Below are positions 7,852 to 57,508 of a DNA stretch of 64,000 nucleotides, piece by piece. The stretch is from assembly GCF_988242995.1 (NCBI RefSeq), contig NZ_OZ547043.1. One strand, 5' to 3'. The notes under the pieces are model-generated. The model made no database searches, had not been told where the DNA came from, and saw only the letters and a list, made by a program, of their open reading frames with translations. The number at the start of each line of letters is the position of its first letter. The first letter of the stretch is position 1. The position numbers and the translations under genes are program-made.

Positions 7852-8912
7852 ATGCATCGACAATCCTTTTTCCTTGTGCCCCTTATTTGTCTTTCTTCCG
7901 CTCTCTGGGCGGCTCCTGCAACGGTAAATGTCGAAGTACTGCAGGACAAACTCGACCATCCCTGGGCGCTGGCCTTTTTACCCGACAATCACGGTATGTT
8001 AATCACTCTGCGCGGCGGCGAGTTGCGTCACTGGCAAGCAGGAAAAGGATTATCTGCGCCGCTTTCCGGAGTGCCGGAAGTTTGGGCGCACGGGCAGGGT
8101 GGCCTGCTGGATGTGGTTTTAGCGCCTGATTTTGCTCAGTCTCGCCGCATCTGGTTAAGTTATTCCGAAGTTGGCGATGATGGCAAAGCCGGAACTGCTG
8201 TGGGTTATGGCCGCTTAAGTGATGATCTCTCAAAGGTGACCGACTTCCGCACCGTCTTTCGCCAGATGCCAAAACTGTCTACCGGCAACCATTTTGGCGG
8301 GCGGCTGGTATTCGACGGTAAAGGTTATCTTTTTATTGCTCTGGGCGAAAACAATCAGCGCCCGACGGCGCAGGATCTGAATAAATTACAGGGCAAACTG
8401 GTGCGTCTGACCGACCAGGGCGAAATCCCGGATGATAATCCTTTTATAAAGGAATCCGGTGCGCGCGCCGAGATCTGGTCTTATGGCATTCGTAATCCGC
8501 AAGGAATGGCGATGAAATTAATATCCCGCAAAAAGGCAAAAACTACGGCTGGCCGCTGGCAACCTGGGGAATCAACTATTCAGGCTTTAAGATACCGGAA
8601 GCGAAAGGGGAGATCGTCGCCGGGACCGAGCAACCTGTTTTTTACTGGAAAGATTCGCCCGCCGTGAGCGGCATGGCCTTCTATAACAGCGATAAATTCC
8701 CCCAGTGGCAGCAAAAATTATTTATTGGCGCGCTGAAAGATAAAGATGTCATTGTGATGAGCGTCAACGGCGACAAAGTGACAGAAGATGGCCGTATTTT
8801 AACGGACAGAGGGCAGCGAATTCGTGATGTTCGCACTGGACCCGACGGTTATTTATACGTTCTCACCGACGAGTCCAGTGGGGAATTACTTAAAGTTAGC
8901 CCACGCAATTAG
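7852..8912 (+). pseudogene. yliI: yliI (soluble aldose sugar dehydrogenase) disrupted by frameshift
   Basis: Two overlapping ORFs (7852-8667 and 8664-8912) carry the N- and C-terminal parts of one protein; total span 1061 bp is not a multiple of 3; frame switches just after ...NPQGMAM (~8518). Confidence 0.7.
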
Positions 8913-9781: not shown

Positions 9782-10984
9782 ATGACGCAATACTCCTCTC
9801 TCCTTCGTGGTCTTGCAGCGGGTTCTGCATTTTTATTCCTTTTTGCCCCAACGGCATTCGCGGCGGAACAAACCGTTGAAGCGCCGAGCGTGGATGCGCG
9901 TGCATGGATTTTAATGGATTACGCCAGCGGTAAAGTGCTGGCAGAAGGCAATGCGGATGAAAAACTGGACCCCGCGAGCCTGACTAAAATCATGACCAGC
10001 TATGTGGTTGGGCAGGCGCTTAAGGCCGATAAGATTAAACTCACCGATATGGTGACGGTCGGTAAAGATGCCTGGGCGACGGGAAATCCGGCACTGCGTG
10101 GTTCATCGGTAATGTTCCTTAAACCGGGCGATCAGGTTTCAGTGGCAGACCTGAACAAAGGTGTGATTATCCAGTCCGGTAATGACGCCTGTATTGCGCT
10201 GGCCGATTACGTTGCCGGGAGCCAGGAGTCATTTATTGATCTGATGAATGGTTATGCCAAAAAACTGGGTCTGACCAACACTACCTTCCAGACGGTGCAC
10301 GGTCTGGATGCGCCGGGGCAGTTCAGTACCGCGCGCGATATGGCATTGCTGGGTAAAGCATTAATCCACGATGTGCCGGAAGAGTACGCCATTCATAAAG
10401 AGAAAGAGTTCACCTTCAACAAAATTCGACAGCCTAACCGTAACCGTCTGCTATGGAGCAGCAATCTGAATGTTGATGGCATGAAGACAGGAACCACGGC
10501 AGGCGCGGGATATAATCTGGTTGCTTCGGCTACCCAGGGCGATATGCGTTTGATCTCCGTAGTACTGGGTGCGAAAACTGACCGTATCCGTTTTAATGAG
10601 TCTGAGAAATTATTGACCTGGGGTTTCCGCTTCTTTGAAACCGTGACGCCAATTAAACCTGATGCCACCTTTGTGACTCAGCGCGTCTGGTTTGGTGATA
10701 AGAGCGAAGTGAATCTCGGGGCAGGTGAAGCGGGCTCAGTGACCATACCGCGTGGGCAGCTGAAAAACCTGAAAGCGAGCTACACGTTAACGGAACCGCA
10801 GCTTACCGCACCGCTGAAAAAAGGTCAGGTTGTCGGGACCATTGATTTCCAGCTTAACGGTAAATCCATTGAGCAGCGTCCGCTGATCGTGATGGAAAAT
10901 GTGGAAGAGGGCGGATTCTTTGGGCGGATGTGGGATTTCGTTATGATGAAATTCCATCAGTGGTTCGGCAGCTGGTTCTCTTAA
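9782..10984 (+). CDS. dacC: D-alanyl-D-alanine carboxypeptidase DacC (PBP6)
   Basis: ORF trimmed to [10 protein letters not shown]..., signal peptide, SxxK (SLTK), SGN and KTG motifs. Confidence 0.93.
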
Positions 10985-11030
10985 TCTTCTGATAACCGGA
11001 TGGCGCGAAACGTCATCCGGTAATACGTCA

Positions 11031-11789
11031 TTAATACATCAACTTAATACGCTGCGTCTGCGCGTACTTCACATACTCATCTTCCGGGCAACAATCGCTC
11101 ACCACAATATCAAAGCGTTTCAGGTCACCCATGCGTGCCGGACGCACCTTGCCAAATTTACTGTGGTCGACAACCAGCACATGCTTTTGCGCCATCGACA
11201 TGGCCCAGTGTTTTACCGGCAACTCTTCAAGATTAAAACAGGTAGCGCCCTTACTGACATGCACCCCCGCCGCGGAATAAAAAGCGATATCCGGGCAAAA
11301 ATTATTCAGCGTTTGCTGAAAATCGATGGGTTTGAAAATGGCGTTACTGGCGTGAAATTCACCACCGCAAAGAAACGCGCGGCAATGGGGTTTCTCTTTC
11401 AGCGCCAGAAAGGTATTTAGCGAATAACAAACGGCGGTGAAAGGGATTTCATTATCAATCGCTTCAATAATCCACGGTGTGGTGGTGCCACAGTCAAAAA
11501 AGAGGGTCTGATCGGGTTCTACCAGCGTCGCAGCCAGTTTTGCCGCCCGACGTTTTTCTTCCACCAGGCGGGATTTTTGATCGCTTAACAGGTAATGGCT
11601 GGCGCTGCGCGGTTCCAGAACAATATAGCCGCCGAGCAAAACGACGGGCGCACTGTGGTTGTTCAGATCGCGACGAATCGTCATCTCCGAAACCCCAAGC
11701 AGGGCGGCGGCGTCTTTAAGATGTAACTTATCGCTGCGTTTTAATTCTTGCAGCAGCTGCCCGATACGCTCTTCGCGACGTGTTTCCAT
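11031..11789 (-). CDS. deoR: DNA-binding transcriptional repressor DeoR
   Basis: 252-aa ORF, N-terminal HTH, DeoR sugar-binding C-terminus; matches K-12 DeoR. Confidence 0.93.
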   Translation of the reverse strand: METRREERIGQLLQELKRSDKLHLKDAAALLGVSEMTIRRDLNNHSAPVVLLGGYIVLEPRSASHYLLSDQKSRLVEEKRRAAKLAATLVEPDQTLFFDCGTTTPWIIEAIDNEIPFTAVCYSLNTFLALKEKPHCRAFLCGGEFHASNAIFKPIDFQQTLNNFCPDIAFYSAAGVHVSKGATCFNLEELPVKHWAMSMAQKHVLVVDHSKFGKVRPARMGDLKRFDIVVSDCCPEDEYVKYAQTQRIKLMY

Positions 11790-54532: not shown

Positions 54533-56809
54533 ATGCTCAATCAAGAACTGGAACTCAGTTTAAATATGGCTTTCGCCAGAGCGCGCGAGCACCGTCATGA
54601 GTTTATGACCGTCGAGCACTTGTTACTGGCGCTGCTCAGTAACCCATCTGCCCGGGAGGCGCTGGAAGCGTGTTCTGTGGATTTGGTTGCGCTCCGTCAG
54701 GAACTGGAAGCCTTTATTGAACAAACCACACCCGTTCTGCCTGCCAGTGAAGAGGAGCGCGACACACAGCCGACGCTGAGTTTTCAGCGTGTACTGCAAC
54801 GTGCGGTCTTCCATGTCCAGTCCTCCGGTCGCAATGAGGTTACCGGTGCAAACGTTCTGGTCGCTATCTTTAGCGAACAGGAGTCGCAGGCGGCATATCT
54901 GTTGCGTAAACATGAAGTCAGCCGTCTCGATGTGGTGAACTTTATCTCTCATGGCACGCGTAAAGACGAGCCGACACAGTCTTCTGATCCTGGCAGCCAG
55001 CCAAACAGCGAAGAACAAGCTGGTGGGGAGGAACGTATGGAGAATTTCACGACGAACCTGAATCAGCTTGCGCGCGTGGGCGGAATCGACCCACTGATTG
55101 GTCGTGAGAAGGAGCTGGAGCGTGCTATTCAGGTTCTCTGCCGTCGCCGTAAAAACAACCCGCTGCTGGTGGGGGAATCTGGTGTCGGTAAAACCGCGAT
55201 TGCGGAAGGTCTTGCCTGGCGAATTGTTCAGGGTGATGTGCCGGAAGTGATGGCTGACTGTACGATTTACTCTCTCGATATCGGTTCTCTGTTAGCGGGC
55301 ACAAAATATCGCGGCGACTTTGAAAAACGTTTTAAAGCGTTGCTCAAGCAGCTGGAGCAGGACACTAACAGCATCCTGTTTATTGATGAGATCCACACCA
55401 TTATCGGTGCGGGTGCAGCGTCTGGTGGTCAGGTCGATGCGGCTAACCTGATCAAACCGTTGCTCTCCAGCGGTAAAATTCGCGTAATTGGTTCGACAAC
55501 CTATCAGGAGTTCAGCAACATTTTCGAGAAAGACCGTGCTTTGGCGCGTCGCTTCCAGAAAATTGATATTACTGAACCGTCGATCGAAGAAACTGTTCAA
55601 ATCATCAACGGCCTGAAACCGAAGTATGAAGCGCACCACGATGTGCGTTATACCGCAAAAGCGGTGCGTGCAGCGGTAGAGCTGGCGGTGAAATACATTA
55701 ACGATCGTCATCTGCCGGATAAAGCCATTGACGTCATCGACGAAGCGGGCGCTCGCGCACGCCTGATGCCGGTAAGCAAACGCAAGAAAACCGTTAATGT
55801 GGCGGATATTGAGTCCGTGGTGGCCCGTATTGCGCGCATTCCAGAGAAGAGTGTTTCTCAGAGTGACCGCGATACCCTGAAAAACCTCGGCGATCGCCTG
55901 AAAATGCTGGTCTTCGGTCAGGATAAAGCCATTGAGGCGCTGACTGAAGCCATTAAGATGGCGCGTGCAGGTTTAGGTCACGAACATAAACCGGTCGGTT
56001 CGTTCCTGTTTGCCGGCCCTACCGGGGTCGGGAAAACAGAGGTGACGGTACAGCTTTCGAAAGCTTTGGGCATTGAGCTTCTGCGCTTTGATATGTCCGA
56101 GTATATGGAACGCCATACCGTCAGCCGTCTGATTGGTGCGCCTCCGGGATACGTTGGTTTTGATCAGGGCGGTTTGCTGACTGATGCGGTCATCAAGCAT
56201 CCACATGCGGTGCTGCTGCTGGACGAAATCGAGAAAGCGCACCCGGACGTGTTCAATATTCTGTTGCAGGTGATGGACAACGGTACGCTGACCGATAACA
56301 ACGGACGCAAAGCGGACTTCCGTAACGTGGTATTGGTGATGACCACCAACGCTGGGGTACGAGAAACTGAGCGCAAATCCATTGGTCTTATCCACCAGGA
56401 CAACAGCACCGATGCGATGGAAGAGATCAAGAAGATCTTTACGCCGGAGTTTCGTAACCGTCTCGACAACATTATCTGGTTCGATCATCTCTCCACCGAC
56501 GTGATCCATCAGGTAGTGGATAAATTCATCGTCGAGTTGCAGGTTCAGTTGGATCAGAAAGGTGTTTCTCTGGAAGTGAGCCAGGAAGCGCGTAACTGGC
56601 TGGCCGAGAAAGGTTACGACCGGGCAATGGGCGCACGTCCGATGGCGCGTGTCATCCAGGACAACCTGAAAAAACCGCTCGCCAACGAACTGTTGTTTGG
56701 TTCGCTGGTGGACGGCGGTCAGGTGACGGTTGCGCTGGATAAAGAGAAAAATGAGCTGACTTATGGATTCCAGAGTGCACAAAAGCACAAGGCGGAAGCA
56801 GCGCATTAA
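54533..56809 (+). CDS. clpA: ATP-dependent Clp protease ATP-binding subunit ClpA
   Basis: Trimmed to [14 protein letters not shown]..., 758 aa; two AAA+ modules ([16 protein letters not shown]). Confidence 0.96.
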
Positions 56810-56823
56810 TCTGATTGTCAGGT

Positions 56824-56860
56824 AGGTTGGTGAAGTCCGTAATCTCGAAAGAGGTTACGG
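56824..56860 (+). terminator. clpA intrinsic terminator
   Basis: AGTCCGTAATCTC-gaaa-GAGGTTACGGACT followed by TTTTT. Confidence 0.75.
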
Positions 56861-57021
56861 ACTTTTTGTTTGTAGGCTGGGGCGGTGAAAACCCTATTTT
56901 TGGAGGTGAAGGTAAGTTGTTGATAATTAATGGTGCTGGAAGGTAAGAATAAAAAAGGGTGGCAGCAGGAAAATGAGATGGTTTTGCTTTATTAATAACG
57001 GACTAAACGTGTAGTATTTGA

Positions 57022-57109
57022 GTTCACTGCCGTACAGGCAGCTTAGAAAGCCAACCGAAAGAAAAACTCGATTTTTATACCGTTCACTGCCGTACAGGCA
57101 GATAAAATG
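57022..57109 (+). CRISPR. orphan type I-F CRISPR remnant: two 28-bp repeats flanking one 32-bp spacer
   Basis: Repeat 1 GTTCACTGCCGTACAGGCAGCTTAGAAA (57022-57049) matches the E. coli/Yersinia I-F repeat; spacer gccaaccgaaagaaaaactcgatttttatacc (57050-57081); repeat 2 GTTCACTGCCGTACAGGCAGataaaatg (57082-57109) degenerate at 3' end; AT-rich leader-like sequence upstream; no cas genes in window. Confidence 0.82.
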
Positions 57110-57508
57110 CGAAAAAAAACTCGTACTTTCGTACGAGCTTTTCTTTAAATATGGCGGTGAGGGGGGATTGACTCGCTTCGCTCGCCCTGCGGGCAGCCCA
57201 CTCACTGCGTTCGTGGTCTGTCCAACTGGCTGCGCCAGTTGTCGAACCCCGGTAGGGGCTTCTCATCCCCCTTGGAGTGCAATATGCGAAAAAAAAGCTC
57301 GCACTTTCGTACGAGCTCTTCTTTGAATATGGCGGTGAGGGGGGGATTGACTCGCTTCGCTCGCCCTGCGGGCAGCCCACTCACTGTGTTCGTGGTCTGT
57401 CCAACTGGCTGCGCCAGTTGTCGAACCCCGGTCGGGGCTTCTCATCCCCCTTGGAGTGCAATATGCGAAAAAAAAGCTCGCACTTTCGTACGAGCTCTTC
57501 TTTGAATA
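57110..57508. repeat. tandem ~179-bp direct repeats (2 full units plus a partial third) each containing a tRNA-Ser 3'-end fragment and a terminator hairpin, abutting serW
   Basis: TGGCGGTGAGGGGGGATT recurs at ~57152, ~57332 and 57509 (the last is the intact tRNA 3' end); each copy is preceded by the hairpin + A-run terminator gcgaaaaaaaaGCTCGCACtttcGTACGAGC; units are ~98% identical. Confidence 0.85.

Follow-up and report, generated by a model that had tools for sequence, protein, structure and literature searches.

A single-spacer type I-F CRISPR array without cas genes between clpA and serW of Escherichia coli and its probable target, csy3

Introduction

Why would a bacterial chromosome keep a CRISPR array of one spacer with no cas genes beside it, and against what could such a spacer be directed? 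The question is raised by a stretch of Escherichia coli DNA of 64,000 nucleotides (below, the window, or the 64-kb window), in which a short type I-F array lies between clpA and serW. The clpA–infA interval is, as an earlier note on this DNA had stated, the location of the I-F locus in the literature (PMC3903273), and strains UTI89 and B7A do carry the locus there. A one-spacer, cas-less I-F array is carried between clpA and serW by most E. coli, and an anti-CRISPR hypothesis for such orphan arrays, in which cognate cas genes arriving on a mobile element are turned against themselves by the resident crRNA, was put forward by Touchon and Rocha in 2010 (PMC2886076). The array considered here is very probably the orphan I-F array of the E. 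coli CRISPR-III locus, bearing one anti-cas spacer derived from csy3. It is known as CRISPR4.1-2 in the Mojica nomenclature and as CRISPR3 in the work of Touchon and Rocha.

Structure of the array and its leader

A repeat finder detected a 20-mer, GTTCACTGCCGTACAGGCAG, in two copies (57022-57041 and 57082-57101) with a start-to-start distance of 60 nt. These are its only two sites in the 64-kb window even when up to three mismatches are allowed, against a chance expectation of 0.01. The first copy is extended by CTTAGAAA into the complete 28-nt I-F repeat GTTCACTGCCGTACAGGCAGCTTAGAAA (repeat 1, 57022-57049, plus strand), while the second is followed by ATAAAATG to form the terminal repeat (57082-57109, plus strand), in which degeneracy is limited to the last 8 nt, the first 20 nt with the Cas6f hairpin having remained intact. 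Between them lies the single 32-nt spacer, GCCAACCGAAAGAAAAACTCGATTTTTATACC (57050-57081, plus strand). The 60-nt period with a 32-nt spacer is thus regular, albeit in an array of the smallest possible size (two repeats, one spacer), and the repeat carries the Cas6f stem-loop CUGCC-GUACA-GGCAG. The Rfam family CRISPR-DR4 (RF01317, gathering threshold 35) matches repeat 1 on the plus strand at 50.1 bits (E 3.3e-10) and the terminal repeat, on the same strand, at 29.7 bits. A chance repeat, a REP element, or a terminator as the source of the 20-mer pair is ruled out by the Rfam score and by the identity to bona fide I-F repeats, since repeat 1 is the same as the array repeats of UTI89.

Both 5-bp repeat hairpins are present in the predicted minimum-free-energy fold of the region 57010-57150 (z-score -3.4). 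Cas6f cleaves at the 3′ base of the repeat stem, and from this cleavage site a template for a 60-nt mature crRNA can be predicted at 57042-57101 (plus strand), consisting of an 8-nt 5′ handle CUUAGAAA, the 32-nt spacer, and a 20-nt 3′ hairpin. All structural elements needed for one crRNA are in place, namely a leader, an intact 5′ handle supplied by repeat 1, a spacer, and an intact hairpin supplied by the terminal repeat.

The leader occupies 156 nt (56866-57021, plus strand) and begins just 3′ of the intrinsic terminator of clpA, a hairpin followed by a T-run that was found at 56832-56865 (plus strand) both by a terminator scan and as an inverted repeat. It is AT-rich, with 38.5% G+C versus 50.1% in the window, and aligns both to the leader that precedes the clpA-proximal array in UTI89, an I-F-positive strain, and to the orphan array interval of K-12, the last ~100 nt being the best conserved. 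The array thus has the usual type I-F frame of AT-rich leader DNA on one side and a degenerate repeat at the far end. The strict scan for sigma-70 promoters gave none on the plus strand of the leader, and the relaxed scan gave weak candidates only, such as TTGATA-19-AAGAAT at 56920. Immediately 3′ of the terminal repeat, as in K-12, the terminator scan places a bidirectional terminator hairpin (57112-57145, both strands), which is common to the array on the plus strand and the serW transcript on the minus strand. Constitutive expression of native orphan arrays is attributed to Almendros et al. 2016 in the summaries of that work given by PMC5972030 and PMC8616872.

The earlier note had described the locus as an exact 28-bp I-F repeat, a 32-bp spacer, and a 3′-degenerate terminal repeat behind an AT-rich leader-like stretch. 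All these elements hold: the repeat is identical to those of both UTI89 and B7A, the degeneracy is confined to the last 8 nt, and the leader is homologous to that of UTI89. As to the extent given there, 56871-57109, its end on the plus strand is exact, whereas its start falls a few bases past the clpA terminator.

Genomic context and the absence of cas genes

The left boundary of the CRISPR-III locus is clpA (54533-56809, plus strand), whose 758-aa product is 100% identical to ClpA of K-12. The right boundary is serW, which encodes tRNA-Ser(GGA) on the minus strand (57509-57596; predicted by ARAGORN, and scored by the Rfam tRNA family at 53.8 bits), followed by infA (57850-58068, minus strand), again identical to its K-12 counterpart. 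DNA homologous to this interval is found in 5,425 of the 5,426 complete E. coli genomes.

Searches of the window with the six I-F Cas proteins of UTI89 (tblastn) and with the DNA of the cas operon (blastn) revealed no I-F cas genes in the 64 kb, as the earlier reading of the letters had also held. Beyond chance, only two regions were hit: the spacer (57022-57084, by csy3 residues 285-299) and the shared terminator of serW. The adjacent cas1f, cas2-3f, csy1-3, and cas6f that would make up a type I-F system are thus missing from the window, and the clpA–serW/infA site in it is free of I-F cas genes. It is this lack that makes the locus an orphan array and not a CRISPR-Cas system, and the presence of such an array confirms the origin of the window from an E. 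coli lineage that is cas-F-negative. A remnant of a second array was also looked for on the serW–infA side, and none was found; the stretch there is 108 nt long in the window versus 698 nt of leader and array in UTI89.

The DNA between the array and serW has a peculiarity of its own. Positions 57107-57527, between the CRISPR terminal repeat and serW, hold 2.4 tandem copies of a 179-nt unit that are 97% alike, each unit opening with the terminal ~19 nt of serW (TGGCGGTGAGGGGGGGATT) and closing with a copy of the serW terminator. On the minus strand, RtT-like units at 57152-57285 and 57330-57464 are scored by the Rfam RtT RNA family at 38.2 and 41.6 bits, slightly below its gathering threshold of 45. 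In Rfam, RtT RNA is the repeat of the tyrT operon, and the annotation pipeline PGAP puts the label “RtT sRNA” at this interval in other strains. The 179-nt units are a serW-linked analogue of the 178-bp tyrT repeats. Their copy number varies: there are none in K-12 and O157:H7, two in the window, and about three in strain 7/2, as judged from the spacing. A literature search on serW-linked RtT-like repeats found nothing.

The repeats and the array also meet. Tandem Repeats Finder sets the start of the tandem array at 57107, within the CRISPR terminal repeat, and the degenerate tail of that repeat with its flank (ATAAAATGCGAAAAAAAA, 57102-57123) resembles the end of an RtT-like 179-nt unit (GCAATATGCGAAAAAAAA, 57280-57301). 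The “degenerate” 8 nt may hence be the native sequence downstream of serW that abuts a 20-nt half repeat.

Target of the spacer

A search of the 5,426 complete E. coli genomes (blastn) with GCCAACCGAAAGAAAAACTCGATTTTTATACC led to csy3 (cas7f), the gene for the backbone of the I-F Cascade. Among the matches listed, those in E. coli are of two kinds: copies of the array itself, intergenic and unannotated, and csy3 of I-F-positive strains. The latter gene was the only near-full-length target among these matches, each time with an I-F PAM. The csy3 gene is carried by 241 of the 5,426 genomes, in 201 of them at no less than 99% identity to the UTI89 allele and in 39 at ~94.5% (B7A type). The spacer matches the UTI89-type allele at 30 of 32 positions (mismatches at 2 and 23) and the B7A-type allele likewise at 30 of 32 (mismatches at 26 and 29). 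The alleles of E. whittamii and Escherichia sp. E1V33 both agree at 31 of 32 positions, with a mismatch at position 2; they came from a codon-degenerate scan of species-representative genomes that yielded eight csy3 loci, 31/32 being the best match. In csy3 of more distant genera, 25-28 of the 32 positions agree.

In every species, the mismatches between the spacer and csy3 fall only on positions 2, 5, 8, and so on up to 32, which are the third-codon sites of csy3. All of them are synonymous and leave the encoded peptide A-C-R-Q-P-K-E-K-L-D-F-Y-T-L-L unchanged. The protospacer is preceded on its 5′ side by TGCC in six of the six Escherichia csy3 sequences examined; read on the target strand, the CC is a leader-proximal GG, the I-F PAM of E. 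coli, and with the third base the flank becomes GGC. The I-F PAM definition, as well as the ability of the GGC motif to support interference in E. coli LF82, is given in PMC3506596. The spacer thus matches an I-F cas gene of related strains next to the CC/GG PAM. Since the mismatches are all at wobble sites and the peptide is unchanged, the spacer is a true fragment of the coding sequence of csy3, and it derives from an allele near, but not identical to, those sampled.

An allele matching at 32 of 32 positions was found neither in an exact-pattern scan of 100,044 species-representative genomes outside array contexts nor among the E. coli matches listed, so the efficacy of the spacer on real alleles hinges on mismatch tolerance. 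A text search of the literature for GCCAACCGAAAGAAAAACTCGATTTTTATACC found no paper.

Other targets were considered as well, a check of the spacer against phages, plasmids, and the host having been proposed at the outset. Searches (blastn) of 50,697 phage and 72,556 plasmid records gave chance-level partial matches (E about 1-10), and one other match in the plasmid records was due to a chromosome misfiled as a plasmid. As to a self-target in the host, the window has no second copy of the spacer at up to three mismatches, and the sampled carriers have one site per genome: in 20 of 20 sampled genomes with the spacer in the array (exact or as a one-base variant), it was the sole match, and hence these genomes have no csy3. 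The check thus ended with csy3 and its correct PAM instead of a phage, plasmid, or self target.

The same results bear on the proposal that the array serves some other cellular role, either as a regulatory RNA or through co-option by a system with compatible repeats (for instance, an I-F3 transposon or a variant I-F system on a plasmid). Non-immune functions have been proposed for orphan arrays elsewhere (PMC8616872), co-option of host arrays by CRISPR-associated transposons is described in PMC11300857, and the array converges on the serW terminator, so that the array and serW transcripts could overlap at the tail of the latter. However, no second match of the spacer exists in the sampled carriers or in the window, which leaves no resident target to regulate; the targets of the spacer are csy3 only, and nothing in the window points to a partner system. 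A role of this kind therefore seems extremely improbable to us.

Spread and variants of the array

Of the 5,426 complete E. coli genomes, 252 carry the 88-nt repeat–spacer–repeat unit of the window unchanged and ~217 more carry it with differences of 1-4 bases, whereas the identity of the whole interval falls to 85-93% in most E. coli genomes. These comparisons show that the functional parts of the array are strongly conserved relative to the surrounding interval.

This conservation is to be set against the reading of the array as a neutral fossil of autoimmunity, according to which an ancestor with a complete I-F system captured a spacer from its own csy3, self-targeting then favored loss of the cas operon, and the inert two-repeat array persisted because it is small and located between essential genes. 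In PMC2886076, this scenario is attributed to Diez-Villasenor et al. 2010, and it is mentioned in PMC8616872. It accounts for a spacer that comes from the cognate cas gene in a locus from which the cas genes are gone, and it is in line with the lack of a perfectly matching target in the 100,044 species-representative genomes and of a clear promoter in the scans. The stem of the terminal repeat, intact in the window, is moreover damaged in K-12, phylogroup B1, and Shigella by a stem-breaking G-to-A change, which hints that the array can decay. Nevertheless, repeat 1, the spacer, and the 20-nt hairpin remain identical or 1-4 bases off across the genomes counted above while the interval around them diverges; the arrays are reported, in PMC5972030 and PMC8616872, to be expressed and active against incoming cas operons; and Touchon and Rocha (PMC2886076) give three arguments against simple inertia. 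On balance, the inert fossil is an unlikely explanation of the array, and we favor the anti-cas one. A self-targeting origin and a present-day anti-cas function are, however, compatible and not mutually exclusive.

Three variants of the array spacer were seen: C2/A5 in the window, T2/A5 in strains TR01 and 100416, and C2/G5 in ETEC6334. The T2/A5 variant matches the csy3 allele of E. whittamii at 32 of 32 positions. Both variable sites correspond to synonymous third-codon positions of csy3, and the alternative bases occur in natural csy3 genes: C2 in the B7A type, T2 in the UTI89 type and in E. whittamii, and G5 in other genera. Such a wobble pattern hints at repeated capture of one PAM-flanked protospacer in recurrent failed invasions, which it would fit better than the drift of a dead array; it is built on two variable sites only, with a chance probability of ~0.1. 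That the spacer is re-sampled from, or kept in step with, the circulating csy3 alleles instead of being a frozen relic is accordingly a tentative idea, and a rather doubtful one.

TR01 (record L015, 701-787) and 100416 (record L018) represent a minor lineage, in which the T2 variant is accompanied by a change of G1 to A in repeat 1 and by two C-to-T changes that affect the stem of the terminal repeat (CTGCT...GGTAG). The latter turn G-C pairs into G-U wobbles, so that the RNA hairpin is kept. TR01 is labelled O157:H7, yet it is without the cas1f-type spacer of typical O157:H7.

Proposed mode of action and origin

How might an array without cas genes act? It is presumed from the literature to be transcribed from the leader, the transcript remaining unprocessed and inert as long as neither Cas6f nor the Csy complex is there. 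If an I-F cas operon arrived by a mobile element or by recombination, the incoming Cas6f would cut the resident transcript, and the Csy complex would be loaded with the crRNA. The loaded complex would then bind the incoming DNA at its csy3 protospacer, and this DNA would be degraded by Cas2-3. Were interference weakened by mismatches, the csy3 target would instead prime the acquisition of further spacers. In either case, an active I-F system would be unable to establish itself in the lineage.

The seed of type I-F consists of positions 1-5, 7, and 8, and mismatched targets prime. Judged by the alignments, the B7A-type csy3 should be the best-targeted E. coli allele for this spacer because both of its mismatches (26, 29) lie distally and leave the seed intact. 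For csy3 of the UTI89 and E. whittamii types, priming or weakened interference is expected to be more likely because of the seed mismatch at position 2.

Both branches of this scheme have published counterparts. According to the accounts of Almendros et al. 2016 (Nat Microbiol 1:16081) in PMC5972030 and PMC8616872, two reviews from the Mojica group, orphan arrays interfere with plasmids bearing the I-F cas set, and targeting by them drives primed acquisition of further spacers.

As to the origin of the array, the earlier note, whose interpretation of the locus is supported, used the word “remnant”, which stands for one of two published evolutionary readings. In the other, given by Touchon and Rocha (PMC2886076), the cas-less array is ancestral and cas genes were acquired later. 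The present data fit both.

The orphan I-F array is a textbook case of a CRISPR array directed against its own cas genes, and arrays of this kind may help to explain the rarity of active I-F systems in most E. coli. The detail added here is that a common spacer variant, identical in those 252 complete genomes, is a fragment of csy3 whose best seed match in E. coli is the B1-type (B7A) allele.

Comparison with known arrays

In UTI89 and B7A, the interval is organized as clpA, leader, array, cas1f, cas3f, csy1, csy2, csy3, cas6f, serW, (leader, array), infA. The repeats beside cas1f–cas6f in these strains are identical to repeat 1 of the window, and the clpA-side leader of complete loci, taken from UTI89, is homologous to the window leader at 85-90% as estimated by eye. 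Complete I-F loci (phylogroups B2/B1: UTI89, LF82, B7A) have 32-nt spacers and flanking genes as in the window. They differ in having 8-14 or more spacers versus one and a different terminal repeat (ending in TATTCACA). Between serW and infA they further possess an additional array preceded by a leader, both of which the window lacks.

Two features of the UTI89 record (L001) were observed in the course of this comparison. Just 3′ of the cas3f stop, within the 330-nt cas3f–csy1 intergenic region, 18 nt (8579-8596; AGCTGCCTGTACGGCAGT) are exactly the reverse complement of the core of the I-F repeat; this element is absent from the window and might represent a terminator hairpin or else an antisense element that resembles the repeat. 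In addition, csy2 (10203-11126) contains an internal stop and bears a pseudogene annotation; unless the stop is an assembly error, this record may encode an inactive I-F effector.

The single-spacer mini-arrays of phages and plasmids show the same architecture as the window array, with a spacer between a complete and a truncated or degenerate repeat and with Cas proteins supplied in trans. Unlike them, the array of the window is chromosomal, occupies a core-genome position, and is directed at the effector gene of the very system to which it belongs, not at a competing element.

Closer to the window is the locus of K-12, which has the same layout of a full repeat, a 32-nt spacer, and a terminal repeat ending in ATAAAATG, with the same junction into the serW terminator. 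The K-12 spacer is different, however: TTCACAGGTAACATACTCCACCCGCCCACCAT is derived from cas1f, which it matches behind CC at 30 of 32 positions in UTI89 and 29 of 32 in B7A, whereas that of the window is csy3-derived. The spacer of typical O157:H7 is a one-base variant of the K-12 cas1f spacer. The two 179-nt RtT-like repeats between the array and serW further distinguish the window from K-12.

The published orphan CRISPR4 arrays share with the window the clpA–serW site, the 28-nt repeat, and the terminal repeat GTTCACTGCCGTACAGGCAGATAAAATG. The latter is letter-for-letter that of E. fergusonii, O157:H7, CFT073, 536, E2348/69, and IAI39 in Table S5 of Touchon and Rocha (PMC2886076). Like the window, these arrays have one spacer against an I-F cas gene, with a CC/GG PAM, in the absence of the cognate cas genes; the targets named in the text of that paper are Cas1, Cas3, and Csy2 (PMC2886076). 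The array described here is thus already known, and nothing essential sets it apart from the published orphan anti-cas arrays, to which only two small additions are made here: the csy3 target found for the spacer of the window, and the pattern of wobble sites among the variants of this spacer.
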